Origin: Actinomycetota bacterium
GTDB taxonomy: Bacteria > Actinomycetota > UBA4738 > JBBDHU01
Reading direction: 5' to 3'
Length of the DNA stretch: 64,000 bases
NCBI GenBank assembly: GCA_040880705.1
Contig: JBBDHU010000003.1
Span: forward strand, 215,476 to 279,475
Both the position numbers and the translations under genes were made by a program. Position 1 is the first letter of the stretch; the number at the start of each line of letters is the position of its first letter. A model generated the notes under the pieces. The model was not told where the DNA came from and did not search any database. It saw only the letters and a program-made list of their open reading frames with translations. This document shows, one piece after another, positions 11,428 to 28,757 of the stretch.

Positions 11428-12499
11428 GAGCGCCCTCGGCCAGCGATTTCGCAAGGTTCGTGATCGCCCGCGTGGCCCGCGAACGCCGGGGTATGAGCGT
11501 GCCCCTGTCCTGCGCCTCACGAACCGAGCGGTCCGATGGAATCACGGAGAGGGCTGGGCGGCCGAATACTCGATCGACGTCGGCCGGAACGATCGTGGAT
11601 CTGTCGGCCCTGTTGACGATGAACTCGCATCTGCCATCGAGTCGCAGTACGTCCAACGCCCGCTTGGCGCTGTGAAACGACAGCACATCCAGCGAGAGGA
11701 CGAGCAACACCCGATCGGCGAAGTCGGCCGCCAGTTTGGTCCGTTCGTCGAGCGCCCGTGGAAGGTGCAACAACACTATGTCGGCTGATGCTGCGGCGAG
11801 ATCCAGAAGAGCGGCATAGGCACTTGTGTCCAGGGGCTCGGAAGCTGACTCGCCGGACGAGAGGGCCACGCGAAAACCGGCCGGATGCGACCACAAGATC
11901 TCGTCGACATGCTCCGCGCCAAGTTCTCCCACGACCGGCCGTAGGTCCTCGATCGACCGCGCTCCCTCGTCACCGGTTACTCCGAGGGCCGCATTGATGT
12001 CGGCGAACTCTGGGTCCATCTCGAGCAGAAGACAGTTCTTTCCGAGTTGCGCGAGCGCGGCGGCAAGATGCGTCGCCACGAACGTTGCGCCGGCGCCCCC
12101 GCGCGGCCCGTAGACGGCCAGCACCTCGGCGCGACGTTCGGTTTCATGAGCAGCCGGCGGTAACGCTTTCGCCGCCGCACTCGCGAGCTTCTCTCGATCA
12201 TCAGGCCACACAAAGAACCCCTCCGCGCCTGCGTCAATGGCTGTACGAAGGGCGGCCACCGATTCGGACGTGTCGACGGCCAGAACGGATTGAGCCTGAG
12301 ACGACTCGACGCCGCGGAGCAACGACGGCGAGGCAATGATCGCGTTCGGCTCCAACTGGCGCACCGCTTCAGCCAGCTGGACATCGTCGCCGGCCGTCGC
12401 AACGACGCGAGTCCGCCCGGACCGATCCAGGAAATGGACGATCTCGTCCGCGGCGTCGGCCGCCTCGATGCCGAGCGCGATCCTGACTATTCCTTCCAA
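11420..12499 (-). CDS. CpaE/Ssd-like ParA/MinD-family ATPase with N-terminal receiver-like domain
   Basis: Deviant Walker A VYGPRGGAGATFVATHLA and an N-terminal CheY-like fold without an obvious phospho-Asp context. First gene of the Tad operon, as for Rv3660c (ssd). Confidence 0.75.
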   Translation of the reverse strand: MEGIVRIALGIEAADAADEIVHFLDRSGRTRVVATAGDDVQLAEAVRQLEPNAIIASPSLLRGVESSQAQSVLAVDTSESVAALRTAIDAGAEGFFVWPDDREKLASAAAKALPPAAHETERRAEVLAVYGPRGGAGATFVATHLAAALAQLGKNCLLLEMDPEFADINAALGVTGDEGARSIEDLRPVVGELGAEHVDEILWSHPAGFRVALSSGESASEPLDTSAYAALLDLAAASADIVLLHLPRALDERTKLAADFADRVLLVLSLDVLSFHSAKRALDVLRLDGRCEFIVNRADRSTIVPADVDRVFGRPALSVIPSDRSVREAQDRGTLIPRRSRATRAITNLAKSLAEGARD

Positions 12500-12659
12500 T
12501 TCCTCTCCTAACGGAAACTCTCGAGGAAGAGAGGGAGAGGCGGTGGCCCCGAACGCGCGAAAAGCAGACTAGATGGCAGCGAGCGCCCGGTGAATCACCA
12601 AAGCAGCCGATTTACGTTCATACGATGCCGGATGCGAGCGCCGCCGTTTGGGGGATTCG

Positions 12660-13307
12660 CTAGTCGTCCTCGGCGTCGTCCACGAGGTCGATACCTAGTC
12701 GGTCGAGTCTTACGCGATGCCGCTCGAGCAGTTCGAGCAGCAGCTTTTTCTCGCCCGCGACCCCGCCCATGAGTTCCCTTAGCTGCGACGCCTGATCCAA
12801 CGCCCGCGAGGTCTGTGTCAGCGCCTCGCCGGAGATCCTCCTCGAGTAGTGCGCGATCCGTTCGCGCACTCGTGGGTCGTCCTCCGTTGCCTTCTTAAGC
12901 TCATCCAGGGCGAAGGTTTCCTGCTGTTCCCTGTCCCCGAGCGTCTTTACGACTTCCGCCGAGATCGGGTCGAGCTTCGCCACCATCTCCTCGGCGAACT
13001 CCGAGGTGAGCGCATCCCCCACGTAGTGGAAGGTCTGTGCCTCGACCCAGTCCCCGGGCTTCGTCCTCTCGTGGAAAAGCTCGAAGAACGGACGGAACCG
13101 AAGCGCCATGTCGGGGGTGCCGATCTCGGCAAGGCGGGCCTCGACCAGTTCGCTGTTTCGCTCCTCTAAGGAGGCGACGTTCGCCTGCTCCTTCTTGGTG
13201 CGATCGTCCGGCGCCAGGCCGACGTTGTTGCGGGCGCGCTCGGCGGCCAGGCGCTCGCCGCACGCGAGCGCCGCGAGCAGCATCGCGACTGCCTCTTGAT
13301 CGGCCAC
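12660..13307 (-). CDS. ferritin-like fold protein (MiaE-like superfamily), function unknown
   Basis: 215-aa acidic helical ORF with good codon usage. Family assignment recalled from similar actinobacterial proteins, not verified. Confidence 0.5.
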   Translation of the reverse strand: MADQEAVAMLLAALACGERLAAERARNNVGLAPDDRTKKEQANVASLEERNSELVEARLAEIGTPDMALRFRPFFELFHERTKPGDWVEAQTFHYVGDALTSEFAEEMVAKLDPISAEVVKTLGDREQQETFALDELKKATEDDPRVRERIAHYSRRISGEALTQTSRALDQASQLRELMGGVAGEKKLLLELLERHRVRLDRLGIDLVDDAEDD

Positions 13308-13360
13308 GGCTCGATTCTAGTGCGCGCCCATGTCGTGCCCGGGACCACCAGATACCGAGA

Positions 13361-13642
13361 ATGTCCTACCCCGGGTCTAGGCTCGTGAACATGGGAACGG
13401 TCATAGATCTGGAGTCCAGGAGGCGCCGGCAGGATCCGGCGGTCGACAGGCTCTCACGGGCGATCGAAGTCCTGGAGCCGTTGGTGGACGGCGCTGAGGG
13501 CAAGCGCTCGCGTCACCCCGGATCTATCGAGACCGAGCTGCTCGCCATCACCGGTGCCATCGCCGGGGAGCGCCTCGACGAGGCCGCAACGCGCGCCGAA
13601 CAACTGGCCGCACGCCTGCGGCGCCTTGCGAAAAACGCGTAG
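13361..13642 (+). CDS. small hypothetical protein
   Basis: Coding-like C-terminal part of the 13037..13642 ORF (VIDLESRRRRQDPAVDRLSRAIEVLEPLVDG...). Start ambiguous (ATG at 13361 or 13391), no strong SD. Confidence 0.4.
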   Translation: MSYPGSRLVNMGTVIDLESRRRRQDPAVDRLSRAIEVLEPLVDGAEGKRSRHPGSIETELLAITGAIAGERLDEAATRAEQLAARLRRLAKNA

Positions 13643-13817
13643 GTTCGCCGAACCCGCGCATTAGAAAAGGGAGCAGCTAACAGGCGCTGTTTGCACTTGC
13701 TCGGTTGCCACGGCCTCCGGCCGGAGCACCCGGGCATGCCTCCCGCGGCAGTCCGCGCGTGGGTACTGCTCCCTTTACGGGATCGATTCTATTCCTGGCG
13801 CGCGAATTCACGAAACG

Positions 13818-13847
13818 GCAGGTCGCACCTGCGACGACGCGTTTTTT
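13818..13847. terminator. hairpin plus T6 tract in a convergent intergenic region (candidate bidirectional terminator)
   Basis: GCAGGT-CGC-ACCTGC stem-loop (13818..13832), then GACGACGCG and TTTTTT (13842..13847). On the minus strand the same hairpin lies about 20 nt past the HAD gene stop. The T tract is not adjacent to the stem, so this is weak. Confidence 0.4.
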
Positions 13848-13854
13848 GTCGTTC

Positions 13855-14646
13855 TTACGAGGCTTCTCTTCGGCGAGGTCTTAGGTAGACCCAGCCGACG
13901 ACGGCGGCCACTCCGGCGGCCGTCAGCGCCGCCGCAACCGGGCTGACGCGCTTGGTCGTAGCGCCGATCCTGGTGCGAAGCGGCACGGGGTGGCGGAAAT
14001 CGCGCACCGGCCAGCCGCGTTGTTCGGCCGCACGCCTCAGCTCACGGCTCGGGTTCACGGCGACCGCGTTGCCGACCTCCTCGAGCATGGGCAGGTCGGT
14101 GTGCGAGTCCGAATATGCATACGAAGCCTGGAGGTCGATCCCCTCGCGTTCGGCAAGCTTGCGGATCGCCTCGGCCTTGCCCTCGCCGTAGCAATAGAAC
14201 GCAAGCTCTCCGGTGTACTTGCCGTTTTCGACGCCGGCCTGGGTCGCGATCACGTTCGTCACGCCGAAGTGTTCGGCCAGCGGGCGAACCACTTCCTGCG
14301 GCGAGGACGAGACGATGTAGACCTCGCGGCCCTGCGAGCGGTGAAGCTCCATCAGGTCGAGGGCCTCCTGATAGACGTAAGGGTGGATCAGGTCGATCAC
14401 GACGCTTCGGACGAGATCCTCTACCTCGGCCTGGTCCCATCCCCTCGAGAGCCGAAGGATCGCTTCCTTGGCGCGGTCCATCCGGCGCTCGTCGGCGCCG
14501 ATCAGGATGTAGACGAACTGCGCGTAGGCACTCCTTAGAACCGCGAGGCGCGAGACCAGGCCGGCGCGGAACATCGGCCTGGTGAGGGCGAACGAGCTCG
14601 ACCTAGCCACGACGGTCTTGTCCAAGTCGAAGAACGCTGCCTCCAT
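13855..14646 (-). CDS. HAD-IB family hydrolase (SerB-like phosphatase)
   Basis: DxDxT motif FFDLDKTV; later motifs YIVSSSP and YSDSHTDLPML; C-terminal membrane-like tail. Confidence 0.85.
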   Translation of the reverse strand: MEAAFFDLDKTVVARSSSFALTRPMFRAGLVSRLAVLRSAYAQFVYILIGADERRMDRAKEAILRLSRGWDQAEVEDLVRSVVIDLIHPYVYQEALDLMELHRSQGREVYIVSSSPQEVVRPLAEHFGVTNVIATQAGVENGKYTGELAFYCYGEGKAEAIRKLAEREGIDLQASYAYSDSHTDLPMLEEVGNAVAVNPSRELRRAAEQRGWPVRDFRHPVPLRTRIGATTKRVSPVAAALTAAGVAAVVGWVYLRPRRREAS

Positions 14647-14730
14647 ACACTCAATGGTAGGGGTTCGCGGGCGTTAACTTCGGATTTCAGCCTCACGCGT
14701 GTACCATCCGTGGGCCGAGAGGGGGCCTGG

Positions 14731-15669
14731 ATGTCGATTCTCGTGACCGGGTCGATCGCGTTCGACAACATCATGGACTTCGACGGCCACTTCAAGGACC
14801 ACATCCTGCCCGAGAAGGTCCACGTCCTGTCGGTGAGCTTTCTGGTCGACACTCTGAAGCGCCAGCACGGGGGCGCGGCGGCGAACATCTCCTACAACCT
14901 GGCTCTTTTGGGCGAGCACCCGTGCATCCTGGCCGCGGTCGGCGACGACTTCGCGGAGTACCGGGCGTGGCTCGAGTCCCACGGCGTGGACTGCCAGTCG
15001 ATCCGGGTGGTTCCCGGCGAGTGGACGGCCTCTGCCTTCATCACGAACGACCGCGACAACAACCAGATCACGGGGTTCTATCCGGGGGCGATGCGCGGCG
15101 CGGCCGGATTGTCCTTGGACAAGGTGGACGGGGACGTCGGGTTGGCGGTGGTGTCGCCCGACGACCCGGCGGCCATGGCCCGCTACCCCGCCGAGTGCCG
15201 AGAACGCGGGATTCCTTATGTGTATAGCCCGGGCCAGCAGATCGTGGCGCTCTCTTCGGAGTCGTTACTCGACGGCTTGAAGGGTGCCCGCTGCGTGATC
15301 GGGAACGACTACGAGATGCAGATGATCGCCGAGAAGACCGGGATGCCGACCGAGGAGTTCCTCAACCACGCCGAAGTGGCGGTCACGACCATGGGCGAGG
15401 GCGGCTCGATCATCGAAACGGCTGACGGGCGGATCGAGCTGCCGGCGGCGGCGGCGGTTCGGGTTGTGGACCCGACCGGCGCAGGCGATGCGTATGTCGC
15501 GGGTGTCGCGCGAGGGCTGATGCGCGACGAGCCGCCGGAAGTCTACGGCCGCGTGGCCGCGATGGCCGGAACCTATGCAGTCGAGAACTACGGAACACAG
15601 GGTCACTCGTATTCGATGGAAGGATTCGCCACGCGCTACCGCGAAGCCTTCGGCCAAGAACTGCCCTGA
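14731..15669 (+). CDS. PfkB-family carbohydrate/nucleoside kinase
   Basis: N-terminal ILVTGSIAFDNIM, GGAAANI, and ATP-site motif DPTGAGDAYVAG. ATG at 14731 preceded by GAGAGGGGG. Confidence 0.85.
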   Translation: MSILVTGSIAFDNIMDFDGHFKDHILPEKVHVLSVSFLVDTLKRQHGGAAANISYNLALLGEHPCILAAVGDDFAEYRAWLESHGVDCQSIRVVPGEWTASAFITNDRDNNQITGFYPGAMRGAAGLSLDKVDGDVGLAVVSPDDPAAMARYPAECRERGIPYVYSPGQQIVALSSESLLDGLKGARCVIGNDYEMQMIAEKTGMPTEEFLNHAEVAVTTMGEGGSIIETADGRIELPAAAAVRVVDPTGAGDAYVAGVARGLMRDEPPEVYGRVAAMAGTYAVENYGTQGHSYSMEGFATRYREAFGQELP

Positions 15670-15704
15670 GCTTCGTTTTTGGGATGTTGTAGTATGCTAC
15701 GCCT

Positions 15705-15950
15705 ATGCTGACAGTGCCGGAAGCGGCCGCACGAAGCGGCCGGAACCCCGAGACCATTCGCCGGTGGATCCGATCCGGCAGGCTCCGCGCGAAAAGGGTC
15801 GGCACCCAGCACGTAATAGAAGAGGAAGACCTCCGCAATCTCGTTGAGCCCGATCACCTTCCCCTCCCGAAGGGTTGGAGGACCACAGCAACGGGCGAGC
15901 CGATGCCAGACGTGGTCGGGCTTATCCGGACGGCACGCGAAGGCCACTGA
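15705..15950 (+). CDS. excisionase/MerR-type HTH protein, probable antitoxin of the adjacent PIN toxin
   Basis: LTVPEAAARSGRNPETIRRWIRSGRLRAKRVG is a typical excisionase-family HTH. Ends 6 nt before the PIN gene. Confidence 0.7.
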   Translation: MLTVPEAAARSGRNPETIRRWIRSGRLRAKRVGTQHVIEEEDLRNLVEPDHLPLPKGWRTTATGEPMPDVVGLIRTAREGH

Positions 15951-15956
15951 CGACTC

Positions 15957-16346
15957 ATGCAGGTCGTTGATGCGAGCGTCGCTCTCCAGGCCTGCCTGTC
16001 GAAATCGGGATTCAGGCCACTCGGACGACGCGAAATGGTGGCCCCTCCCCTTCTCTGGTCCGAGGTCACTGCCGCGCTGCATCAGGCGATGTGGCGTGGC
16101 GCTATCAGCGAACGTCTCGCGGCATTGGCCTTGGAGCGTCTGGGGGAAACGCGAATTGCAACCCGGCGCCCGGCTCGGCTGTACTCGGAGGCTTGGGAAG
16201 TCGCTCAAGAGCTCGGTTGGGCGAAAACCTACGACGCCGAGTATGTGGCGCTCGCCCGCCTCCTCGCTTGTCCGCTCGTGACGATCGATGCGCGGCTGGC
16301 TCGCTCCGCCGAGCGGCTGGTTGAGATCGCCACACCCTCCAACTGA
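15957..16346 (+). CDS. PIN-domain ribonuclease toxin (VapC-like)
   Basis: 129 aa. N-terminal acidic VVDASV, central E (YSEAWE) and C-terminal LVTIDARL are typical PIN catalytic positions. Confidence 0.75.
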   Translation: MQVVDASVALQACLSKSGFRPLGRREMVAPPLLWSEVTAALHQAMWRGAISERLAALALERLGETRIATRRPARLYSEAWEVAQELGWAKTYDAEYVALARLLACPLVTIDARLARSAERLVEIATPSN

Positions 16347-16389
16347 GAACCCTCGTCAACCCGCGGGGCAGCGAGAGAAGAGCCCAGAA

Positions 16390-16818
16390 CTAGCTCCTCG
16401 ATAGTTCGACCGAACCCTCGGGAGCCGAAAGGGTCACGACCGCTCCAGAATCGGCGAACTTGACGACGAGTGGACCCGAGAGAATCACATCCGCGAACCT
16501 TTCGGAGAACTTCTCGGCCTGCCCGCCGCAACCGGCAAGCGTGCTGAAGGTTTCCTCCGAATCGATCCTCAACAAACCTTCTTCATATGCGTAGGGCCCA
16601 CCTAAGTGATTGCATCCCTCCCAGCCGGTTACTTCACCACCGCCGAAGGCCACCCAGGGTGGCTCCTGCGCGCGGGACACGTCCCCCATCGGCTTTCCGT
16701 CGAGGGACTTCACATTCCAACGACCTTCGAGGCGAGCACCTCCCCCCGTGCACACCGTCAGCATGGACACCATCGCGAGGGACATGAGAGCCAGCCGGCC
16801 TGCGTTCCTCGAGGGCAT
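16390..16818 (-). CDS. META-domain (HslJ-like) lipoprotein
   Basis: Signal plus lipobox MLTVCTGG. META core EGRWNVKSLDG...GGEVTGWEGCNHLGGPYAYEEG...STLAGCGG. Paralog of 22598..23056. Confidence 0.8.
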   Translation of the reverse strand: MPSRNAGRLALMSLAMVSMLTVCTGGGARLEGRWNVKSLDGKPMGDVSRAQEPPWVAFGGGEVTGWEGCNHLGGPYAYEEGLLRIDSEETFSTLAGCGGQAEKFSERFADVILSGPLVVKFADSGAVVTLSAPEGSVELSRS

Positions 16819-16826
16819 GAGGTTCG

Positions 16827-17258
16827 CTAGGCCGCGGTCACCTCGAAGTCGGCGGTTTCCTCACCGACGCTGATCGTGATCTCGCCCTCCGCCGTGGGCG
16901 AGGTCGATCCCGAGCAGGTGACGGAAACCATGTAAGGACCGGGGACAGCGTTGGCCGGCACGGTGATCGTCCCCGAGGACTCGGGGCCGCGCGGCACGTC
17001 GGCGACTGGCGACGCTCCGCCGCTCATGTACTGGTCCTCGGTGCCGGCGTGCATAGTCGCGTGCTTGTCGTCGGTCTCGTCGCAGCCCGAGACCGTCCAG
17101 GTGATCGGAGTCCCTGGCGCGCCGGACTCGGGATCGAGCGTTAGGCCACGGCCGCCGCCATCTCCGCCCTCGCCGGAGCTGCCGCCGCCGTTGCCGCTGC
17201 ACGCGACGGCAAGTATCGAGACCAGGATTAGGACGGCTCTTGCGAGGTTTCGATTCAT
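16827..17258 (-). CDS. secreted lipoprotein, unknown function
   Basis: From the ATG at 17258: MNRNLARAVLILVSILAVACSG (lipobox), a Gly/Ser linker, then a beta-rich domain with two Cys. Confidence 0.55.
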   Translation of the reverse strand: MNRNLARAVLILVSILAVACSGNGGGSSGEGGDGGGRGLTLDPESGAPGTPITWTVSGCDETDDKHATMHAGTEDQYMSGGASPVADVPRGPESSGTITVPANAVPGPYMVSVTCSGSTSPTAEGEITISVGEETADFEVTAA

Positions 17259-17346
17259 TCCGAGGCTCCCTCCGGTTGGGCGGTTCGCGTCCTTATAGCG
17301 CGTGGGCGGACGCGCGGGCAAGGCGAGGCCGCGTAAGCTCGCCCCC

Positions 17347-17439
17347 GGAGGCGACAGGGCACCTGGTGGGCCCCCCGGTCTTCAAAACCGGTGTGGGGGC
17401 GAAAGCTCCCAGGCGGGTTCGATTCCCGTCCGCCTCCGC
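17347..17439 (+). tRNA. selC: tRNA-Sec (anticodon TCA)
   Basis: Hand fold. Acceptor GGAGGCG/CGCCTCC (7 bp) plus T stem GGCGGG/CCCGTC (6 bp, one G-T) gives a 13-bp coaxial stack, the tRNA-Sec hallmark. Anticodon stem CCGGT/ACCGG with loop CTTCAAA (anticodon TCA). Long variable arm GGGGGC-GAAA-GCTCCC. T-loop TTCGATT. CCA not encoded. Confidence 0.85.
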
Positions 17440-17458
17440 GAATATGCTCTGACTACGA

Positions 17459-18397
17459 ATGGGCGTTTATCAGGACAGTGAAGGTCAAACAGTCTTCCTC
17501 GGGCATGGGTCCTGGCTCCTCACGCTCGATCTAGAAACCGAGCATGCCGCAGAGATCGAACTGGAAGGTGTGTCCACGGCTGATGTGATCCGTACCTCTG
17601 ATGGCCTGTTGGTCCTTGATGCGAGAATCAGGACAGCATTCTATTCATGGAAAAACGAGCTCCTCGTTGTGCCTTCTGAGGACCCGGCCAGAATCATCGG
17701 CCGAATGGCCCTGGACAAGGCGGGCCAGATCTCTTGGCAGGGGGATGCCGACGCATGGGCGGCTCTGCCGCGAATCCACAACGGGTATGTATGGGCGCAG
17801 GATGGATCTTGGAAGACCGATGTTCTCCTGCTCCGACACGACAACCCGGGCGAAGTCGAGTTCCTGCCACAACCACTATTCCCGGCCCCAATAGGGGACT
17901 CCCAAGTAAAAACAGCCTGCCTATCTGACGACAAGACTGCTCTCTTCGCCTATTTTGAGTGGATCCTCGTAACCGACTTGATGACTAAGGACACTCTCAG
18001 AACGATCACGCTGCCGTCGATTCTGTCCGACGACGCACCTCTGCGAGTCGAGGAGTCTTTGGGCAATGTGTGGTTCGTGACTGACACCCTGCTCGGGTTC
18101 GCGGATTTAGCCACGGGTGAGACGAAATCGATCGACGTTGGGAAACTCCGAGAAGGCGACTACATAGCCGACTTCGCTCCAGATCCAGCCTTTGACTCTT
18201 TTGCGGTTGCGCTGCTCAGAAGTGGTGCGGTAGTTTTGGTTAATGCGGAGACGCTGTCGATCACCGGCGTCTTTGAGACGGGAGAGCAAATCGGTTCGCT
18301 CGCGTTGCTCGGAGATGGGCGGGTTGTCTACCAGCCGTGGGCCAAGGGAAGACTGGTGATTGCGAGGCTGGACGACCGATCCCGAAGGGCAAACTAG
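17459..18397 (+). CDS. hypothetical protein (312 aa, no recognisable motif; possibly a beta-rich repeat fold)
   Basis: Long ORF starting 20 nt after the tRNA, with lower GC. No signal peptide or catalytic motif recognised. Confidence 0.5.
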   Translation: MGVYQDSEGQTVFLGHGSWLLTLDLETEHAAEIELEGVSTADVIRTSDGLLVLDARIRTAFYSWKNELLVVPSEDPARIIGRMALDKAGQISWQGDADAWAALPRIHNGYVWAQDGSWKTDVLLLRHDNPGEVEFLPQPLFPAPIGDSQVKTACLSDDKTALFAYFEWILVTDLMTKDTLRTITLPSILSDDAPLRVEESLGNVWFVTDTLLGFADLATGETKSIDVGKLREGDYIADFAPDPAFDSFAVALLRSGAVVLVNAETLSITGVFETGEQIGSLALLGDGRVVYQPWAKGRLVIARLDDRSRRAN

Positions 18398-18486
18398 TTC
18401 CCCCAAATGCGTGGGCACCGCAATCGGTTCTCATCCTGCCAGGAACTGGACGAGTTGGCGCGATGACAGTTTGGTGACCTGACGAA

Positions 18487-18993
18487 GTGGAGAATCCCAA
18501 GGCCCCGATTCGTGACTCCGAGGTGTCCTTGCGCACCTATCGTCGTCGGCTTCTCTCGGTAGCCGGCACGACCATCGCGTGTATCTGGATACTGCTAGCT
18601 GTAATCGTTATAGTCTGGATGCTTCTAACCCCCGAACAATTCCGAGGTGTGGTCGTGCAGGCGATCGCAGCGGCCGTGATATACGCAGCGGTCGGCGTGG
18701 CTTTGCTGAGGACCGCAATCACCGGCATCAAAACATACCCTGAAGGTTTGCGCGTCATCAATTTCTGGCGGAGCCGAAGGTTTGGGTGGAGCGAGGTCAA
18801 GGAGTTTCAGGACAAGCGATGGCTGATATACCCGCACGTCTGCCATCTCAAGACTCGCACTGGCCATATCCTCCCGATTCCTTCAATTTCAGGCTGGTCG
18901 TTCTTTCGAGGAGAATGGTTCACTGAAACGATGCAGGAACTCCGAGGGGAATTGGACGCGCGGGGGCAGAAACTGTCGGCCGACTCCCACTAA
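18487..18993 (+). CDS. membrane protein with C-terminal bacterial PH-like domain (tentative)
   Basis: Two TM helices (IACIWILLAVIVIVWMLL, AIAAAVIYAAVGVALL), then GIKTYPEGLRVINFWRSRRFGWSEVKEF, which resembles bPH-type domains (recalled). GTG start. Confidence 0.5.
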   Translation: MENPKAPIRDSEVSLRTYRRRLLSVAGTTIACIWILLAVIVIVWMLLTPEQFRGVVVQAIAAAVIYAAVGVALLRTAITGIKTYPEGLRVINFWRSRRFGWSEVKEFQDKRWLIYPHVCHLKTRTGHILPIPSISGWSFFRGEWFTETMQELRGELDARGQKLSADSH

Positions 18994-19084
18994 ACGTGAA
19001 TTAGGATAAGAAGTCACCCAAGGCAACTTGGTGGAGCAGCACACCTCCGGTAACGTCGGCAATTCCTTCTGGTGGCCCTCGATC

Positions 19085-19202
19085 AGGCACCCGCATGGAC
19101 TAGTGCGGACCAATGTGGACGACCTCGCGCTCGAAGTAGGCCCGCGCGGACGCATCTGGACGGCCAAGGACGGATCCCACCCGCTCTTCAACCTGTGAGA
19201 GC
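19085..19202 (+). repeat. element arm B: 10-bp-phased GGAC repeats plus a degenerate tRNA-Sec anticodon-arm copy
   Basis: GGAC at 19097, 19107, 19117, 19148, 19158 and 19168 (spacing 10, 10, 31, 10, 10), followed by GGATCCCACCCGCTCTTCAA. Homologous to 20859..21010. Confidence 0.8.
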
Positions 19203-19243
19203 GCGAAAGCTCCCAGGCGGGTTCGATTCCCGTCCGCCTCCGC
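19203..19243 (+). repeat. 41-nt perfect direct repeat of tRNA-Sec positions 17399..17439 (attR-like)
   Basis: GCGAAAGCTCCCAGGCGGGTTCGATTCCCGTCCGCCTCCGC is identical to the variable-arm-to-3'-end part of selC. Confidence 0.9.
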
Positions 19244-19257
19244 TACGGTGAGGAAGA

Positions 19258-20226
19258 TTGCCTCGCCGGCACACGCATCGATATCATCCCGACATGGTCA
19301 CGCGGAAGGCGCGTTCGGTGATCGTCGGTACGCTGACCGCTGCACTCGTCATCGGCGGCCTCGTTGCACTTCGAGTCACCTGGAACAACCCTGACCGTTC
19401 ATCGCAAGGCAATCGCGCCCACGGAAGGATCGTTTTCGCTGCAAATGTTGCCGACAGGTGGCGGCTGTTCACGATGAACTCCGACGGCACAGAACGCCGC
19501 GAGCCGATCGGAGGCGCCGGCGGGTACTCATCGGATTGGTCACCTGATGGCAGCCACATCGTCTACGAGACTGTGGGCGGTGAGTTGTGGACGATGAATG
19601 CCGATGGAAGCAACAAACACCAGATCGTGAGAGGCAACGAACCTCTTTGGTCGCCGGATGGAAATCGCATCGTCTTCGAGAGGATGTGTAGGCCAACACG
19701 AGTTGTTTGGTTCGACAAGGGAGTGGCGGGTTCGGCAAGCTGCGTCTTCATCGTCAATTCGGACGGAAAGGATTCACATGAGCTTCTCCTGTCCAAAAAC
19801 CTGAGTGATTCGCCTATATCCTGGTTCCCAGATGGCGAACGCATTCTCCTGAGCCGCGCGAGTCGGCTCGGTACAAGTCTTTGGGAAGTAAATGCCGATG
19901 GGACGCAACCGCGGAGATTAATTCCGTGGAAGGAACCCGGTGAGGCAGGAGAGTTCTCCCTTTCCCCTAAGGGCAGCCTCCTGGCCTTCTCCAAGGGTGA
20001 AGACATATGGACAATGAGCTTGGACGGAGGCAATGAGGTACAGCTGACATCCGGTCCGGGCTACTCGAGCAACCCTGCATGGTCGCCTGATGGCGCAAGA
20101 ATTGTTTTCAGCCGGGGTGGGGACATCTGGGTTATGGACGCGAGCGGGGCTAATGAGCGTGCCGTTACCAGCAGCGGTTATCGACCGGAGGAGCTAGCTC
20201 CCGTCTGGGGCGTCGCCCCGACTTGA
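19258..20226 (+). CDS. TolB-like PD40 beta-propeller repeat protein with N-terminal TM/signal anchor
   Basis: Repeated WSPDGxxIV(F/Y) motifs (DWSPDGSHIVYE, LWSPDGNRIVFER, SWFPDGERILLSR, AWSPDGARIVFSRGGDIWVM). TTG start preceded by GAGGAAG; an alternative ATG is at 19294. Confidence 0.8.
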   Translation: MPRRHTHRYHPDMVTRKARSVIVGTLTAALVIGGLVALRVTWNNPDRSSQGNRAHGRIVFAANVADRWRLFTMNSDGTERREPIGGAGGYSSDWSPDGSHIVYETVGGELWTMNADGSNKHQIVRGNEPLWSPDGNRIVFERMCRPTRVVWFDKGVAGSASCVFIVNSDGKDSHELLLSKNLSDSPISWFPDGERILLSRASRLGTSLWEVNADGTQPRRLIPWKEPGEAGEFSLSPKGSLLAFSKGEDIWTMSLDGGNEVQLTSGPGYSSNPAWSPDGARIVFSRGGDIWVMDASGANERAVTSSGYRPEELAPVWGVAPT

Positions 20227-20247
20227 ACCCGGGTTAGCGCGCGGCCT

Positions 20248-20271
20248 GGTTCGATTCCCGTCCGCCTCCGC
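20248..20271 (+). repeat. 24-nt perfect direct repeat of the tRNA-Sec 3' end (17416..17439)
   Basis: GGTTCGATTCCCGTCCGCCTCCGC, located 22 nt after the PD40 gene stop. Confidence 0.85.
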
Positions 20272-20308
20272 TAGAGGGTGTCCGCAGGTACGCGATAATG
20301 GCGACGTC

Positions 20309-20839
20309 GTGTCCAGGAATCTCGAACGGGTTCTGACCGCCCTTCTCGTGTGTGTTGCACTACTGGTGGGCTGCACTGCCCCCGGATCATCCAAGAATGA
20401 GCAGACCACGAGCACTGACCCACGACCCTCCTCGGCGCGCATCTCGCTCACGGGAGAGGGGATGGACCTGAGCCTTCCCGATGGCGGCTTCACACAACTG
20501 TCTATCCGCGGGGTAGGCGGCAACCCCATAGCCTCAGATGATCGCGCGGAGCGCTTTGCCGGATTGAACTCGCTCCAGGAAGCATTCGAGGGGGGTCCGG
20601 TTGCAGCGGTCGCTGTGGCCGATCAACCTGCGGAGGATGGCGCCGATTCTCTGGTTCTCACGCTCGGGCGTTGCTGCCGCTACTTGGTAAACGCAAACAC
20701 TCTCGTCTTCGAGAACGTGAAGATGGTCACCGGGGATTACCCTCCAAGCCTGCAGCCATGGGTTGGCACCCGCTTCCAGACGCCTCCCGAGCGACTCGGC
20801 GGGATCACCCTTTACATAGAAACCTCCCCCGCAGGATGA
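20309..20839 (+). CDS. lipoprotein, unknown function
   Basis: MSRNLERVLTALLVCVALLVGCTAPG (lipobox LVGC). 176 aa, no other motif. Confidence 0.6.
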   Translation: MSRNLERVLTALLVCVALLVGCTAPGSSKNEQTTSTDPRPSSARISLTGEGMDLSLPDGGFTQLSIRGVGGNPIASDDRAERFAGLNSLQEAFEGGPVAAVAVADQPAEDGADSLVLTLGRCCRYLVNANTLVFENVKMVTGDYPPSLQPWVGTRFQTPPERLGGITLYIETSPAG

Positions 20840-20858
20840 CCCACGCGGCTTTGTGTTA

Positions 20859-21010
20859 GGCACCCGAGGTCCCCGAGTGTGTCGCCCGGCTCACAACGCC
20901 TAGAGAATTCGTTCATGGACCCGCGTGGACTGGCGTGGACCGCGTGGACACTTCGCGCTCGGAGTGGACTCGCGTGGACGTAGCTACCCCCGTGGACGGA
21001 TCCCACCCGC
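20859..21010 (+). repeat. element arm D: 9-10-bp-phased (C)GTGGAC repeats plus a degenerate tRNA-Sec anticodon-arm copy
   Basis: GGAC at 20917, 20927, 20937, 20946, 20966, 20976 and 20994. Begins AGGCACCCG and ends GGATCCCACCCGC, like arm B. Confidence 0.8.
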
Positions 21011-21049
21011 CTTCAAAATCGGTGTGGGGGCGAAAGCTCCCAGGCGGGT
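21011..21049 (+). repeat. 39-nt copy (1 mismatch) of the tRNA-Sec anticodon-loop-to-T-loop segment (17380..17418)
   Basis: CTTCAAAATCGGTGTGGGGGCGAAAGCTCCCAGGCGGGT. Similarity stops abruptly inside the T-loop. Confidence 0.85.
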
Positions 21050-21128
21050 CGAGCATCGGCCCGCTGATGGTTCGAATCCATCCGGGCCAGCACCGCCCTG
21101 ACGCTCTCCATCGTCGCGCGCCTCTGGG

Positions 21129-21806
21129 ATGCTTCCCGGCATGGACAAGTCTGATCCCTCGTACAAGGGGCAGTCCGGGTACAACGCGGCGATGCTCGCG
21201 ATCTACGACGTGTGGGTGCTGAAGTTCATGACGAAGGCGGTCTGGAAGGTTCCCGTGGCACCGGGCGTCGACAGATATCGACAGCACATGGGGCACCGAC
21301 ACCTCGATGTTGGGCCGGGGACCGGCTACTTCATCGAGAAGGCGGACCCGCCCCGCGGCACGGAGATCACGCTCCTAGATCCCAATCAGACCGTGCTTCG
21401 CCACGTGGCGAAGCGACTCGAGGAATGGCATCCGATCACCGTTGAGGCCGACGTCATGAAGCCCCTCCCGGTCGACGGACCGTTCGACTCCGCGGCACTC
21501 AGCTTCGTCCTTCACTGCCTTCGCGGGCCAGAGGGAAACAAGGCGCTCGCCGTTAGGAACATCGCGGATGTCCTCAGCCCGGAGGGGGTCCTCTTCGGCG
21601 GGACGGTCCTCGGCCTCGAGGGTAACCACACGAAGTCCGCGCGCGCGTTCCTGCGAGCAGCCAACAAGCAAGGGGCCTTCGACAACGTGGACGACACTGC
21701 GGAGGGGCTCCGCCGCATTCTGGAGATGTCTTTCAGCGCCGTGGATGTCGACGTCGTCGGTTCTGCGGCCCTCTTTGCTGCGGCCAGGCCACGGTCCCGC
21801 TCCTAG
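21129..21806 (+). CDS. class I SAM-dependent methyltransferase
   Basis: Motif I HLDVGPGTGYF, post-I LLDPN, motif II/III region FDSAALSFVLHCL. Confidence 0.85.
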   Translation: MLPGMDKSDPSYKGQSGYNAAMLAIYDVWVLKFMTKAVWKVPVAPGVDRYRQHMGHRHLDVGPGTGYFIEKADPPRGTEITLLDPNQTVLRHVAKRLEEWHPITVEADVMKPLPVDGPFDSAALSFVLHCLRGPEGNKALAVRNIADVLSPEGVLFGGTVLGLEGNHTKSARAFLRAANKQGAFDNVDDTAEGLRRILEMSFSAVDVDVVGSAALFAAARPRSRS

Positions 21807-21890
21807 ACGCCGCCCGGTCGCGGGCGCACAACCCCGAGGGCAGGGTTGGCTGGGCCCTCCCGCTGTGATCCGACATGGTAGAAACCGACG

Positions 21891-22340
21891 ATGAAGGACG
21901 ATGAAGCCGGCATGCCGGCTGCCGGCTCGGAAAGGGGCGGGCAATTCACCCGACTCCTTCTGCGCGTAGCGCTCACGGTGGGTGCTCTTGCGCTGACTCA
22001 GGTCGCCGCCTCAGCCGAGCGGAGTTGGGAGCGGATCGCGGCAAGAACCTTTGACTACGGCTGGGTGGGATGGATCCCTTGGCTCATCCTCTTCGCTCTT
22101 TCCGGAGCACTCTTCGGTCTCGCGATATGGCTACCTCGGCGGGCGAGCTACCACTTGAGGCCGTCCGTCTTGCTCGGCGTCCTGCCGCTCCTCTTGATCG
22201 CGTACCCGATCGCGTGGTTGAACGGCATCACTCTGCCGTTTCTCGACGAGCCGCCTCTCCACGATCAACTCGAACTGCTCGGCTTTCTCGTCGGCCTTTC
22301 GATCGCGTCGGGCTTCATGGAACCGAGGACTGCTTCCTAA
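21891..22340 (+). CDS. small integral membrane protein (paralog of 23056..23517)
   Basis: 4 TM. Shares LLRVAL..GALA, GW(I/V)PWL.LFAL.G.LFGLA(I/M)WLPRR and [12 protein letters not shown] blocks with 23056..23517. Confidence 0.55.
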   Translation: MKDDEAGMPAAGSERGGQFTRLLLRVALTVGALALTQVAASAERSWERIAARTFDYGWVGWIPWLILFALSGALFGLAIWLPRRASYHLRPSVLLGVLPLLLIAYPIAWLNGITLPFLDEPPLHDQLELLGFLVGLSIASGFMEPRTAS

Positions 22341-22349
22341 CAACTTCCC

Positions 22350-22493
22350 TCAGGCGATCGTGACCGTTCCTGGCATGCCGTAATCCCAGTGGCCGGGGGC
22401 GTGGCAGCCGAATAACAGCGCGCCGGGCCCTTCGAAGGTGTATGTCGTTGAGCGCGTGGCGCCCGCGGGCAGGCGCTGCGTGATGTTGCTCAA
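22350..22493 (-). pseudogene. cupredoxin (type-1 copper protein) C-terminal remnant
   Basis: Minus-strand frame ending TGA at 22352..22350 reads ...SNITQRLPAGATRSTTYTFEGPGALLFGCHAPGHWDYGMPGTVTIA*, containing the C-x4-H-x4-M copper-ligand loop. The frame is closed upstream by TAG (22545..22547) with no ATG or GTG start. A possible N-terminal piece (SDHTRVIEQ) sits in another frame. Confidence 0.55.
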
Positions 22494-22597
22494 TGACCCG
22501 CGTGTGATCCGACTTCGACATTGATACCTCCCTCTTGTCAGTCGCTATTGTGTCCTTCGTGGGCACCTTGCGCAGCAGGCGTCATCGTAGAGTCCAC

Positions 22598-23056
22598 ATG
22601 AGTCTCGGACGCAAGGTCGTCGTCGTCTCCATCGCGGCATTCTCCCTGGTCGCGTGTGTAAGGGGTTTCACCGGCCTGGAAGGGCGTTGGAACGTGGAGT
22701 CGCTCAACGGTCGTCAGATCCTTTACGCCGGTAGTCAAGAGCCGCTTTGGATGATCTTCCGGGGCGGGGAACTAAGCGGTTGGGAAGGCTGCAATCACTT
22801 CGGAGGGCCCTACGTCTACGAAGGTGACTCGGTAGGAGTCGCCTGGCAAATGATGACGGCGATTGGCTGCGGGCGGCGACCTGAGGAGTTCTTGGATGTG
22901 ATCCAGTCGGATCCCTTTGTGGTCACCTTCGACGATTCGGGAATGAGGATGACAATCACATCTGAGAAAGGTTCTGTAGAACTATCGAGAGACCTTTGCA
23001 CCAAGGAGAACCCCAGACACTTCGTCGAGTGGGACAAACCCGAGAAGGTCTGTTGA
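22598..23056 (+). CDS. META-domain (HslJ-like) lipoprotein, second copy
   Basis: From the ATG at 22598: MSLGRKVVVVSIAAFSLVAC (lipobox). EGRWNVESLNG...GGELSGWEGCNHFGGPYVYEG. Its stop overlaps the next start (TGATG). Confidence 0.8.
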   Translation: MSLGRKVVVVSIAAFSLVACVRGFTGLEGRWNVESLNGRQILYAGSQEPLWMIFRGGELSGWEGCNHFGGPYVYEGDSVGVAWQMMTAIGCGRRPEEFLDVIQSDPFVVTFDDSGMRMTITSEKGSVELSRDLCTKENPRHFVEWDKPEKVC

Positions 23057-23517
23057 TGGAAAAGGGTGACGCAAGCCGGCGGATCGAGACACTACGTACG
23101 CTTCTGCGAGTCGCGCTCGCGGCGGGCGCCCTGGCGATCGGTCATGTTGCGACACTGGCTCAAAGACGATGGCTGGTGATCGTAGAATACGGCGCCAACA
23201 TCGGCGTCGGGGGTTGGATTCCCTGGCTAAGCCTCTTCGCCCTGGCCGGGGGACTCTTCGGCCTTGCGATGTGGCTTCCGCGGCGGGTTGGGTACCGGTT
23301 GGGACCGCCGGTTCTGATCGGTTTCCTTCCGCTCCTCGTTCTTATCTACGCGATCGGCTACCTCGGGTACGCCCCATACTTTCTCGGATACGAAAACAGC
23401 CCGCTTCTCACCGAGGAGCCCCCGATCTACGACCAGGTCCCGCTGCTCGCCTTCCTTATCGGTCTTTCAATCGCGTCGGGTTTCATGGAAACGGGGAAGG
23501 CTTCGCGGGTACGCTAA
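23056..23517 (+). CDS. small integral membrane protein (paralog of 21891..22340)
   Basis: ATG at 23056 overlaps the META gene stop by 1 nt. Same 4-TM layout and conserved blocks as 21891..22340. Confidence 0.6.
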
Positions 23518-23521
23518 CCAC

Positions 23522-25348
<1,827 letters not shown>

Positions 25349-25368
25349 CCTCCGAATAAACTGGCTGA

Positions 25369-26061
25369 GTGACCACAAGGACTCTGGCGGGCGTGCTCCT
25401 TGTAGTCGCGCCCATCTGGTTCAACATCTGGTTCGCGGTGCTCGCGCGCCGGTTCGATTACCCGGACATCCTTCGTAAGCCGATCGAGGAAATCCTCTCG
25501 CGCTTTCGAGCCGGCGGATCCGGCTTGATCCTCATCTGGTGGGCCTTTGCGGCATCCGGTGGACTGTTCGTCGCTGCAGCCGTTCTGCTTTCCATTGTGC
25601 TGTTTCCGCAGGCAAAAACGGCGTCTGTCGTCGCCCTAGTCGTTGGGGTGCTCGCCGGGCTGGTCCAGGTTCTCGGGCTTCTGCGGTGGGTCTACCTCGT
25701 GCCCTCGCTCGCGCGCGCGTACGGCGATGCGGAGGCGAGTGAGGCGACGCAGTCGGCGGTTGAAGTCACGTTTCGCGCGTTCCACCACTACTTGGGAGTC
25801 GGAGTCGGTGAGCACCTCGGCTATCTGCTGACCGGCGCTTGGACCGGCTTCGTCGGATTCGCGATCCTGACCGGCGATGCGTTGGCGCCCTGGCTCGGTT
25901 GGGTTGCGCTTCCTCTTGCCGTTGGGCTAGTTGCCGCTTCCGTTGAATTCCTCGGGCCGAACGAGGAGCGTGGGTGGGCGTTGGCCGGCAAAGCCGTCCC
26001 ACTGCTCTACATTGCGTGGTCGCTCTGGCTCCTCGCCGTGGGGCTTTCGCTAATCATCTGA
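25369..26061 (+). CDS. DUF4386-like integral membrane protein
   Basis: 230 aa, 6 TM, GTG start. Family recalled from overall pattern only. Confidence 0.5.
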   Translation: MTTRTLAGVLLVVAPIWFNIWFAVLARRFDYPDILRKPIEEILSRFRAGGSGLILIWWAFAASGGLFVAAAVLLSIVLFPQAKTASVVALVVGVLAGLVQVLGLLRWVYLVPSLARAYGDAEASEATQSAVEVTFRAFHHYLGVGVGEHLGYLLTGAWTGFVGFAILTGDALAPWLGWVALPLAVGLVAASVEFLGPNEERGWALAGKAVPLLYIAWSLWLLAVGLSLII

Positions 26062-26154
26062 GTTCGGCCCACGGCTGCTACGCGGCCTACAGAATGATGC
26101 CCAGGTGACGGGATTCGTGCGCCGAGCGCGTCGGGGCTAGTCTTTCTCCCGGCG

Positions 26155-27768
26155 ATGAGACCACAAAGTGAAGCCGAACAGGCCGCCAAGCTCCGCCTCG
26201 CCCTCAAGGCGGGGGAATTGGGGCTCTGGTCCTGGGATCCGAAGAGCGGCTCGGTCGAATGGGACGAGAAGCTCGAGGAGATATTCGGCCTTCCCCCCGG
26301 CGGCTTCGACGGCAAATACGAGACGTACCTCTCCCTACTTCACGACGACGACAGGGAATCGGTCTTGAGAGCCATCGAGGAGGCGCTCGAAACCAAGACC
26401 GGCCACCACGTCATCCACCGCATAGTCAGGCCTGGCGGAGAGATCGCATGGATGGAGGGCTGGGGCACCGTCCAACTCGACGACTCGAATGAAGTCGTGA
26501 GCTTGCTTGGCGTTGCCCGTGACGTAACCGCCCGGCAACGAGCAATCGATTCGAAGGCTCGCCTTCAAACCATCACGGACGCCGCGATCGGGCGCCTCAG
26601 CGTAGGTGACCTAACGAAGGAACTCGTCGCTCGCATCCGTGACACGATCGAAGCGGACACCGCCCGGCTCCTGCTCCTTTCTCCCGACGGCACATATCTT
26701 TCCGGAGGCGGAGCTATCGGGCCCGAGGGACCGATGGAAGACCCGGTCCCCATTCCTGTTGGCCATGGGTTCGCGGGCGGCATCGCAGCCACGAGGAGGC
26801 CCCGTCTCGTCTTCGATATTTCCTCGATCGAACTGATCGGTCCATTCCTCAAGAACGCGGGAGTCCGATCTGTCGCCGGAGTACCCGTAATAGAGGGCGG
26901 CGATCTCTTGGGAGTGCTCCACGTCGGGAGCCGCACGCCGCGCCAATTCGACGACCAGGACGTTGCCGTTCTCGAACACGCCGCCGATCGGATCGGCGTA
27001 GCGCTCCGAAGGGCGAGAGCGGAAGACAGCGTGCGCAGGACGGCCGATGCGCTGCAACGAAGCCTCCTGCCCAAGTCGGTTCCGGCGATACCGGGATTGG
27101 ACATAGCGGCCAGCTACCATTCCGCCGGCGGAGATCTCGTCGGGGGGGACTTCTACGACGTCTTTCAGGCCTCCGACACCAGTTGGTGCGTTGCGATCGG
27201 GGACGTTGAGGGAAAAGGAGTCGATGCGGCGACGATGACTTCGCTCGTTCGCCACACGATCAGGGCTGCCACCCGGTTCCACCAAAAGCCAAGCGAGATC
27301 TTGGAAACCGTCCACGAGGCCGTTCGCGAGGCGGCGACGGATACCTTCTGCACGGCGTTGATCGCCTTGGTCGAGCCTGAGAACACGATGCCGACTATCA
27401 CCTTCGCGTGCGGTGGACATCCGCTTCCCCTGCTGGTTCATGGAGACGATGCGCAGCTCGTGGGACAGCCGGGAACGCTGCTCGGATTGATCGATCCGGC
27501 CAGTGCCAGCGACACGACGCTCAACCTGTCGGATGCCGATTGGCTCCTTCTCTACACCGACGGTCTCACCGACGTGCCCCCGCCGTTCGGCCTGGACGAC
27601 GAGGCTCTGCGAGAGATGGCATCGGCTTGCACGCGAGCCACCGCCTGGGAAATCGCGGACAGCGTCGAGAAGGCGCTCGAGAACATACTGCCCTTCGAGA
27701 AACGGACCGACGACACGGCCTTCGTCGTCATCCGCCCGGTTATTCCTCCGCTTTCGACGCCTAATTAG
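26155..27768 (+). CDS. PAS-GAF-PP2C (SpoIIE-type) serine phosphatase
   Basis: PAS (GELGLWSWDPKSGSVEWDEKLEEIFG), a GAF region, and PP2C/SpoIIE motifs GGDFYDV, GDVEGKGVDAA and LLLYTDGLTD. Confidence 0.9.
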   Translation: MRPQSEAEQAAKLRLALKAGELGLWSWDPKSGSVEWDEKLEEIFGLPPGGFDGKYETYLSLLHDDDRESVLRAIEEALETKTGHHVIHRIVRPGGEIAWMEGWGTVQLDDSNEVVSLLGVARDVTARQRAIDSKARLQTITDAAIGRLSVGDLTKELVARIRDTIEADTARLLLLSPDGTYLSGGGAIGPEGPMEDPVPIPVGHGFAGGIAATRRPRLVFDISSIELIGPFLKNAGVRSVAGVPVIEGGDLLGVLHVGSRTPRQFDDQDVAVLEHAADRIGVALRRARAEDSVRRTADALQRSLLPKSVPAIPGLDIAASYHSAGGDLVGGDFYDVFQASDTSWCVAIGDVEGKGVDAATMTSLVRHTIRAATRFHQKPSEILETVHEAVREAATDTFCTALIALVEPENTMPTITFACGGHPLPLLVHGDDAQLVGQPGTLLGLIDPASASDTTLNLSDADWLLLYTDGLTDVPPPFGLDDEALREMASACTRATAWEIADSVEKALENILPFEKRTDDTAFVVIRPVIPPLSTPN

Positions 27769-28716: not shown

Positions 28717-28757
28717 GGACTACGAATACCCACAAGTCACAGGATGAGGGGACGTTC

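Follow-up and report, generated by a model that had tools for sequence, protein, structure and literature searches.

The window analysed here is a stretch of 64,000 nucleotides (nt) from contig JBBDHU010000003.1 of an uncultured soil Actinomycetota bacterium (assembly GCA_040880705.1). It contains an intact selC, the gene of tRNA-Sec, which is followed by three partial copies of itself. The copies bound small blocks with one or two genes each, and two of the copies are directly preceded by a short non-tRNA arm. The array is built from the following features.

17347..17439, plus strand: selC, intact tRNA-Sec gene with anticodon TCA (ARAGORN, Rfam RF01852)
17440..19078, plus strand: cargo of block A, genes A312 and A168
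19079..19184, plus strand: putative right-end arm of element A (P-arm remnant), four S-Y-GGAC repeats and the 17-mer GGACGGATCCCACCCGC
19185..19243, plus strand: copy 2, 3' part of selC, attR-like (repeat finder, direct comparison)
19244..20247, plus strand: block B, a single gene for a PD40/TolB-like beta-propeller
20248..20271, plus strand: copy 3, 3' end of selC, positions 70-93, exact over 24 nt
20272..20908, plus strand: cargo of block C, gene C176
20909..21010, plus strand: putative right-end arm of element C (P-arm remnant), six S-Y-GGAC repeats and the 17-mer GGACGGATCCCACCCGC
21011..21049, plus strand: copy 4, selC positions 34-72, 39 nt with one mismatch

The preliminary description of this DNA, made from the sequence letters alone, had reported a complete tRNA-Sec gene with three partial copies behind it, and both statements hold. 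ARAGORN and Rfam agree on the gene, which scores 77.1 bits with RF01852 against a gathering score of 47 and is the only tRNA gene found by ARAGORN in the window (17347-17439, plus strand). Its cloverleaf folds with z=-3.4, and its sequence is the same in the sister strain GCA_040878365.1. The repeat finder and direct comparison likewise agree on copies of 41 nt exact, 24 nt exact and 39 nt with one mismatch. The 24-nt 3' end of selC occurs three times in the window when up to three mismatches are allowed, against 0.01 occurrences expected from shuffles. The start-to-start spacings from selC through copies 2, 3 and 4 are 1804, 1028 and 799 nt, and the next open reading frame (ORF) begins 20, 15, 38 and 80 nt after selC and copies 2-4, respectively. 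These values stand as first described, the second ORF start lying at 51 nt by the NCBI gene call. All three copies share the strand and orientation of selC, as is the rule for islands in tRNA genes (tDNA islands). No promoter- or terminator-like site was found between selC and the first ORF, A312.

The three copies differ in extent. Copy 2 matches selC positions 53-93 exactly over 41 nt (19203-19243) and extends, in diverged form, back to the anticodon loop, with 19185-19202 corresponding to the anticodon-loop and variable-arm segment. Its mismatches to selC are clustered, five falling in 19 nt and none in 41 nt (Fisher p=0.002); therefore, judged from the sequence, the 5' part of copy 2 (19185-19202) is probably derived from an element rather than from a mutated tRNA gene. 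Copy 3 is a short core from the T stem-loop onward without a GGAC arm, and its extent is that of the attR (26 nt) of an IMG/VR provirus integrated at selC. The regions of copies 2 and 3 fold no better than shuffles (z=-1.85 and +0.53). Copy 4 is an attR-like core that begins in the anticodon loop and is truncated at the T stem (position 72), and its counterpart in the sister strain runs on to the tRNA 3' end. Directly 5' of copy 3, the stretch 20187-20247 is weakly tRNA-Sec-like, at 18.8 bits below the threshold; it has GGAGG at its 5' end and an anticodon-like loop CUUGAAC, with the PD40 gene ending at the UGA of this loop.

Directly 5' of copies 2 and 4 lie the two non-tRNA arms, which are about 105 nt long each, homologous to one another and 76% identical. 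Both end in the identical 17-mer, present twice in the window against 0.07 occurrences expected, and both carry S-Y-GGAC repeats that are phased at about 10 nt, or about one helical turn; the background of this repeat in the window is 1.8 per kb. The arm of element A is 74% identical to an arm in the sister strain, and that of element C is 88-89% identical to the sister arm at positions 1438-1541 of the sister contig L128. In attP sites of the lambda type, phased direct repeats beside the core are typical of arm-type sites for the integrase or an excision factor. By this likeness, the arms at 19079-19184 and 20909-21010 are read as the right ends of two related elements, and their GGAC repeats as presumed binding sites for an integrase or excision factor.

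The starting points of the copies are also informative. The Islander study distinguishes two main classes of attP, with anticodon-centred and T-stem starts (PMC4383910). The start of copy 4, position 34, is in the anticodon loop and that of copy 3, position 70, in the T stem; each thus lies at or near one of the standard classes. Since arms accompany copies 2 and 4 whereas copy 3 has a short T-loop core, at least two classes of element are involved. Several candidate relatives of these sites were rejected. The 17-mer has one match in IMG/VR, which lies in coding sequence with no tRNA core after it and is a chance match, and a search of Joint Genome Institute (JGI) metagenomes for an arm joined to an anticodon-loop core gave no match and thus no intact relative of the GGAC-arm element. 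The flanks of copy 3 are not homologous to those of the T-loop-type sites in the provirus and in a further actinobacterial locus described below (L088). Moreover, A168 and C176, the genes preceding the two arms, are unrelated, and the homology of the arms therefore does not reach into the genes.

The blocks differ from their surroundings in composition. GC content is 56.9% in block A, 58.7% in B and 62.8% in C, the whole window having 63.7%, and it rises toward the host value with distance from selC, with 64.5% as the next value in the series. The block genes have a GC at third codon positions (GC3) of 0.64-0.67 (0.64-0.66 in block A) against 0.82-0.87 in the genes for HAD, PfkB, p164 and BipA. 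The blocks are thus AT-richer than the flanks, as had been noted at first sight, and the windowed GC and codon-usage comparison proposed at that point bears this out. All block genes are co-oriented with selC.

The cargo had initially been described as an orphan 312-residue protein, a PH-like membrane protein, a PD40 propeller and a lipoprotein; the last three stand, whereas the orphan status of the first does not. A312 (17459-18397, 312 aa) matched only itself in a word-indexed protein search, but an exhaustive HMMER search recovered 15 remote homologs of similar length with 25-35% identity. The two closest of these lie directly after RHS/YD-shell proteins of about 2100 aa, abutting or overlapping them (one is at L142 8001-8918). 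Cognate immunity genes classically occupy the slot right after an RHS toxin. Because its nearest distant homologs adjoin RHS toxins, A312 is probably an orphan RHS-toxin immunity protein, as far as the gene neighbourhood of distant homologs can tell; in the window it stands alone after selC, without an RHS neighbour. An AlphaFold model of A312 computed without an alignment has a pLDDT (the predicted local distance difference test) of 35 and no usable fold.

The second gene of block A, A168 (18487-18993), encodes a small membrane protein of 168 aa with a sub-threshold PH-like match, and neither A312 nor A168 has a Pfam, PHROG, NCBIfam or PADLOC match above threshold. The PD40 protein of block B starts at 19258 or 19294 and ends at 20226. 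It has an N-terminal membrane anchor, a Pfam PD40 match (1.7e-20) and an NCBIfam TolB-type match, and it forms a singleton in clustering at 90% identity. Its sub-threshold PHROG match (E 0.0029, to a family of unknown function) is the sole PHROG match among the cargo of blocks A-C. C176 (20309-20839) is a predicted lipoprotein with the lipobox LVGC and has no family match in Pfam, PHROG or NCBIfam. None of the block proteins matched the PADLOC defence-system models, the methyltransferase and HTH matches being to generic domains. At 90% identity or more, A312, A168, the PD40 protein and C176 were found only in this genome.

The sister strain provides a close comparison, with 99% amino-acid identity in BipA and about 95% nucleotide identity in shared regions. 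Its HAD-side contig (L130) shares selC and the gene upstream of it, p164, with the window at 97-98% identity. There, selC is followed by a different block of 3.56 kb with five small ORFs and then by a 60-nt selC copy (positions 34-93), after which come a 290-aa ORF, a 375-aa tyrosine integrase, an Xre-type regulator and a 457-aa protein. The integrase (L130 1279-2406) is of the phage type (phrog_1, 1.5e-58). It is only about 30% identical to generic phage integrases, has no relatives in IMG/VR, forms a singleton on one contig at 90% identity and is the only related integrase found. The BipA-side contig of the same strain (L128) carries the GGAC arm followed by a selC fragment that reaches the tRNA 3' end with three mutations. 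Gene orientation in the sister array is mixed, and neither of the two retrieved sister loci contains a homolog of the window's block proteins or of MT225, a methyltransferase encoded just beyond copy 4.

With such different content downstream of selC in close strains, the selC locus is hypervariable. The comparison of related selC loci suggested in the preliminary description thus reveals presence/absence polymorphism of blocks between the window and the sister strain. That description had also named what would speak against its proposal, an arrangement invariant across relatives together with the absence of any related integrase-bearing element; the locus is clearly neither invariant nor without an integrase-bearing relative. 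In this Actinomycetota lineage, selC is very probably an active integration hotspot for tyrosine-integrase elements.

These observations also bear on an origin of the copies by local duplication without site-specific recombination, in which slippage, segmental duplication or gene conversion would have spread pieces of the tRNA 3' end. The copies are indeed close to each other, on one strand and in direct orientation. However, the intervening DNA shows no duplication and has a foreign composition, standard crossover regions coincide or nearly coincide with two of the three copy boundaries, and the arm on two of the copies is also present at the sister selC locus next to integrase-bearing DNA. 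We regard this origin as extremely improbable.

Neither the blocks nor the rest of the 64-kb window yielded an integrase, excisionase or transposase, or any recombinase domain, PF00589 included. The search combined precomputed Pfam annotation (7459-21213, 21372-35348 and about 33.6-50.6 kb) with Pfam scans of the remaining long ORFs; both agree with each other and with the first reading of the sequence.

The same sequence is present in the NCBI metagenome-assembled genome (MAG) GCA_040904185.1 and in the Logan contigs of SRR27977663. Artefactual stitching has to be considered at such a locus, as islands from co-occurring strains could have been joined at their shared tRNA-derived repeats into an array that exists in no single cell. 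The locus does vary by strain, the sister samples SRR27977662 and SRR27977663 holding different versions, and every assembly was built from the same reads. In addition, the NCBI contigs break at 21213/21372, inside MT225, and the Logan contigs end inside the 41-nt repeat. The latter is explained by their assembly at k=31, and the former may be caused by a 95%-identical copy of the MT225 unit in another abundant soil organism. On the other side, with 24-59 nt the repeats are exceeded in length by the reads and by the largest k-mers that standard assemblers use. Copies 2-4 are traversed identically by the NCBI contig and the 409-kb source contig, and the Logan contig L003, at 100% identity, spans copies 3 and 4 as well as the NCBI break. 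Since the 41-nt sequence is exact in only two places, all pieces can be used in no order but the linear one or a circle, and the composition gradient and the pairing of the arms are coherent. An artefact is therefore very unlikely.

We consider it highly probable that the selC locus holds several mobile elements that inserted one behind another and have since lost their integration genes. At least three elements would have integrated successively, in the Campbell manner, into the 3' part of selC. Each integration would have regenerated the tRNA gene and displaced the earlier 3' fragment downstream, so that the site nearest selC would be the youngest; the intact selC is the regenerated target, on the attL side, of the most recent integration. 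Elements A and C would belong to one family, with a GGAC arm of about 105 nt at the right end and att similarity back to the anticodon loop, and the middle element B would have used a short core starting at the T stem-loop. Deletions would then have removed the integrase and most of the remaining DNA from all three, which would leave remnants of 0.7-1.8 kb with one or two cargo genes each. Finally, the distal end would have been remodelled again, with copy 4 truncated and joined to a unit made of a tRNA-Gln fragment and a methyltransferase gene. The blocks would thus be fossil remnants, or remnants resembling cis-mobilizable elements (CIMEs), and not autonomous units.

This account of decayed tandem islands, one of the two offered in the preliminary description, agrees with the homology of the arms, with the presence of two att classes, with the GC gradient from selC outward and with the sister strain. 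The repeats themselves had been proposed there as the footprint of tyrosine integrases at a tRNA gene, which the arm homology, the starting points of the att copies and the integrase of the sister strain bear out. A 5.9-kb deletion in the same neighbourhood, marked by the cupredoxin gene remnant described below, lends further support. The path from integration through decay to a CIME and on to accretion of the next element is a published one (PMC5704250; similarly PMC3146451). We infer the order of events and the decay by deletion, and several points weigh against the account. Copy 2, exact only from position 53, fits no canonical crossover site cleanly. No sequence shared by the left ends of the blocks was found, and a common left arm therefore cannot be demonstrated. 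The blocks also yielded no pseudogene or fragment of an integrase, which is why the deletion step is inferred and not seen. The ORFs follow the att copies at only 15-51 nt and are all co-oriented, which is tidier than random decay predicts. Moreover, the sister array lies on two unjoined contigs, JBBDMK010000017.1 and JBBDMK010000027.1, its integrase not being tied to the GGAC-arm element, and the assemblies of the window, coming from one read set, are not independent of each other.

Beyond copy 4, the region contains a second tRNA-derived site and the features that lead back to sequence shared with the sister strain.

21065..21092, plus strand: 3' fragment of tRNA-Gln(CTG), 28 nt exact, T arm plus acceptor strand (metagenome matches)
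21068..21820, plus strand: methyltransferase unit headed by the tRNA-Gln fragment, with gene MT225 at 21129-21806
21891..22340, plus strand: p149, membrane protein, a 52% paralog of p173
22345..22471, minus strand: 3' remnant of a cupredoxin gene, 93.7% identical to L128 2909-3035

The tRNA-Gln fragment follows the truncated copy 4 after a linker of 15 nt. A 22-mer taken from it has matches on four metagenome contigs, all of them within genuine tRNA-Gln genes, where the exact match extends over 27-30 nt. Together with 21057-21063, the fragment forms a minihelix-like dyad, and the region 21011-21100 folds with z=-3.3. A similar arrangement occurs in the attR of the IMG/VR provirus (L125 599-660, minus strand, UViG_3300033168_000020), in which the acceptor 5' strand GGAGGCGG stands directly before the T arm of selC. 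This attR forms a perfect acceptor/T-arm minihelix, and the architecture is the same as that of the tRNA-Gln fragment in the window (21057-21092).

Over 755 nt, the methyltransferase unit has 95.0% nucleotide identity with contigs L138-L141, which come from soil in three other projects. The homology extends from the T stem-loop of the tRNA-Gln fragment to 14 nt past the MT225 stop (21068-21820), and the other genes on these contigs have no counterpart in the window. The units on the soil contigs are also headed by a tRNA-Gln 3' fragment, which there reaches back to the anticodon, and the T stems of the window and the soil contigs differ by paired changes (GATGG/CCATC against CTTGG/CCAGG). MT225 belongs to a cluster of 53 members at 90% identity or more and matches phrog_2132 (3.7e-31). 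At the selC locus the unit is strain-specific, the sister strain having two unrelated genes in its place. It is a fourth strain-specific unit, tied to a second tRNA-derived site and fused to the truncated copy 4. The junction between copy 4 and the tRNA-Gln fragment could have arisen by deletion, by imprecise excision that captured flanking DNA, or by integration at a secondary site.

Further downstream, the strain-specific stretch closes with p149, after which homology with the sister strain resumes at 22345. Its paralog p173 (22996-23517) lies directly upstream of BipA. The homology resumes within the cupredoxin remnant, which corresponds to a part (L128 2909-3035) of the intact cupredoxin gene of the sister strain and marks a deletion of 5.9 kb in the window relative to that strain (L128 2914-8945). 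The genes of the lost 5.9 kb are cupredoxin, DUF2330, BBE oxidase, DUF1697 and ADH. The whole selC region is bracketed by META-domain paralogs at 16390-16818 (minus strand) and 22535-23056 (plus strand), which form inverted repeats of 75-90%; the upstream paralog (16390-16818) is absent from the sister strain. Upstream of selC there is also a toxin-antitoxin pair (15705-16346), which is HTH_17/PIN in the window and PhdYeFM/PIN_3 in the sister strain.

The use of selC as an attachment site extends to other genomes. A genome scan with the selC 24-mer gave at least 122 exact matches at 120 or more loci across Actinomycetota. Among the 122 matches listed, 99 lie in tRNA-Sec genes, 8 in tRNA-Sec genes with a CUA anticodon and 15 outside any called tRNA. 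One of these 15 is a tRNA cut by the end of its locus and the rest are partial copies; most partial copies among the matches listed begin in the anticodon loop, at CTTCAAAA. Clustering of the ORFs around the 15 revealed no shared integrase and nothing else in common. The eight CUA-anticodon genes are called tRNA-Pyl(cta) by ARAGORN (L044, L047, L050, L071, L072, L082, L105 and L111), and six of them come from named Geodermatophilaceae and two from MAGs labelled only Actinomycetota and Mycobacteriales. UAG-recoded tRNA-Sec has reportedly been described in Geodermatophilaceae, by Mukai et al. in 2016.

The IMG/VR provirus shows the intact pattern, with tRNA-Sec, an integrase 76 nt downstream and a 26-nt T-stem attR about 38 kb away, and selC is therefore a regular attachment site in Actinomycetota. 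Short blocks without an integrase recur at selC as well. In the Actinomycetota MAG BP_567 (JAXDJH010000016.1, L088 1148-5380), selC is followed by three T-stem-type copies at +68, +2583 and +4117 nt with conserved arms of about 30 nt on the left and about 48 nt on the right. The blocks at this locus are a 64-nt 'empty' unit, a GH92 glycosidase gene and a hydrolase-adenylate-cyclase gene, in mixed orientation, and no integrase was found between the copies. In a Planotetraspora genome (L096), a copy lies 768 nt beyond selC. More distant relatives, located through HAD at 61-71% amino-acid identity, were also considered; in these, selC is directly followed by a Pat-type acetyltransferase that is absent from the window, and they are too distant to serve as an empty site.

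The small size of such blocks had led the preliminary description to prefer a cassette-accretion site serviced in trans. As a functional cassette array, the blocks of one or two genes would be minimal cis-mobilizable units that an integrase encoded elsewhere, on an incoming element or at another place in the genome, still inserts, excises or shuffles at selC-derived att sites, and the locus would resemble an integron in its working. The blocks are indeed small, single-purpose and co-oriented with selC, with an ORF just after each att copy, and two of them retain the phased-repeat arm at 76% identity. An integrase-bearing element occurs at the same selC in the sister strain, the MT225 unit is 95% identical in unrelated contigs with homology from the tRNA-Gln T loop, and the BP_567 locus combines three copies with conserved arms, single-gene blocks and an 'empty' unit. 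However, the att copies in the window are heterogeneous, with identity from position 53, 70 or 34, one of them truncated and copy 3 armless; the blocks have no conserved left arm, and no recombinase was found in the 64 kb. The sister integrase is a singleton at 90% identity, on one contig. The mixed gene orientation in the sister strain and at the BP_567 locus leaves no common promoter logic. Block genes occur nowhere else at 90% identity or more, so no cassette has been seen in two places, and the sequence gives no sign of block excision or mobility. The only unit that recurs elsewhere is that of MT225, in a non-array context. We thus depart from the original preference and judge a working cassette array to be unlikely.

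In a broader form of the idea, arrays of minimal units with one gene each would be anchored at selC, and perhaps at tRNA-Gln, in soil Actinomycetota, and integrases carried by strain-variable elements in the population would move or reshuffle the units in trans. All that a unit retained would be a core derived from the tRNA and a short arm for protein binding. The arm on two blocks, the MT225 unit in an unrelated context and the BP_567 array with its empty unit would fit this idea, which we hold to be doubtful. If true, arrays of minimal units would be a tDNA-based analogue of the integron.

The account of decayed tandem islands has close parallels. Tandem island arrays in tRNA and transfer-messenger RNA (tmRNA) genes were reportedly described by Reiter in 1989 and by Williams in 2002. 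In the tandem arrays of islands or prophages treated in the Islander work (PMC4383910), the tDNA is regenerated and displaced 3' fragments on the same strand mark the island ends, as at the present locus. The stacked integrations, the foreign composition, the strain-specific content and the fragment starts at the anticodon or T stem are shared, too. The window has an intact target, a proper fragment start and foreign composition with polymorphism, as tDNA islands do, and lacks an integrase inside the island. Islander counts an array only if every member has an integrase, whereas the members in the window have none and measure only 0.7-1.8 kb. The target differs as well, being the tRNA-Sec gene of an uncultured actinobacterium.

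In CIMEs and site-specific accretion, according to the passages of PMC5704250 that treat them (with Pavlovic 2004 and Bellanger 2011 as sources), integration and transfer genes are lost, att sites are kept, and elements lie in tandem at the 3' end of the target. The history given in these passages, integration, decay and new integration, is the one proposed for the window, and the same passages also cite Streptomyces pathogenicity islands for accretion (Zhang & Loria 2017). The blocks correspondingly lack integration and transfer genes, as judged with Pfam, PHROG and NCBIfam. However, CIMEs are defined by functional attL and attR sites, and cis-mobilization has been demonstrated for some of them, whereas the window retains phased-repeat arms to the right of A and C, no recognisable left arms and a truncated copy 4.

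The Dehalococcoides ssrA islands (PMC3146451) resemble the window in having many direct repeats of the tDNA 3' end after a single-copy gene and in being hypervariable between strains. Fifteen of them have no integration module and were suggested to be CIMEs, and a conserved motif lies just before each repeat. They differ in their serine recombinase module, 20-bp ssrA repeat and rdhA operons, against the tyrosine integrase of the sister strain and tRNA-Sec repeats of 24-60 nt here. In Enterobacteriaceae, selC is likewise a hotspot, taking up foreign DNA that differs in size and content (LEE, the locus of enterocyte effacement, and others; PMC6174562). Those islands belong to another phylum and integrase lineage, are usually tens of kb long and often keep the integrase. 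The likeness to integron arrays is superficial and lies in the short units of one or two genes in series, the bounding repeats that resemble recombination sites and the absence of a recombinase inside. Unlike an integron, the array has no adjacent intI, attI or Pc, with selC and p164 upstream instead. Its repeats are direct tRNA-derived copies with a one-sided arm rather than attC hairpins, and no block of the window was seen at a second location.

On the reading as decayed islands, the locus is a known kind of genome scar and not a new system of gene capture. It represents a clean and unusually compact case of islands that accumulated and decayed at a tRNA gene of an uncultured soil actinobacterium, and it identifies selC as a widely used attachment site in Actinomycetota. 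In annotation, the partial tRNA-Sec copies should be left out of the gene calls, the blocks marked as horizontally acquired and A312 labelled as a probable orphan immunity gene. Should the small blocks turn out to be mobile in trans, the locus would bear on the trade of single genes at tRNA hotspots.

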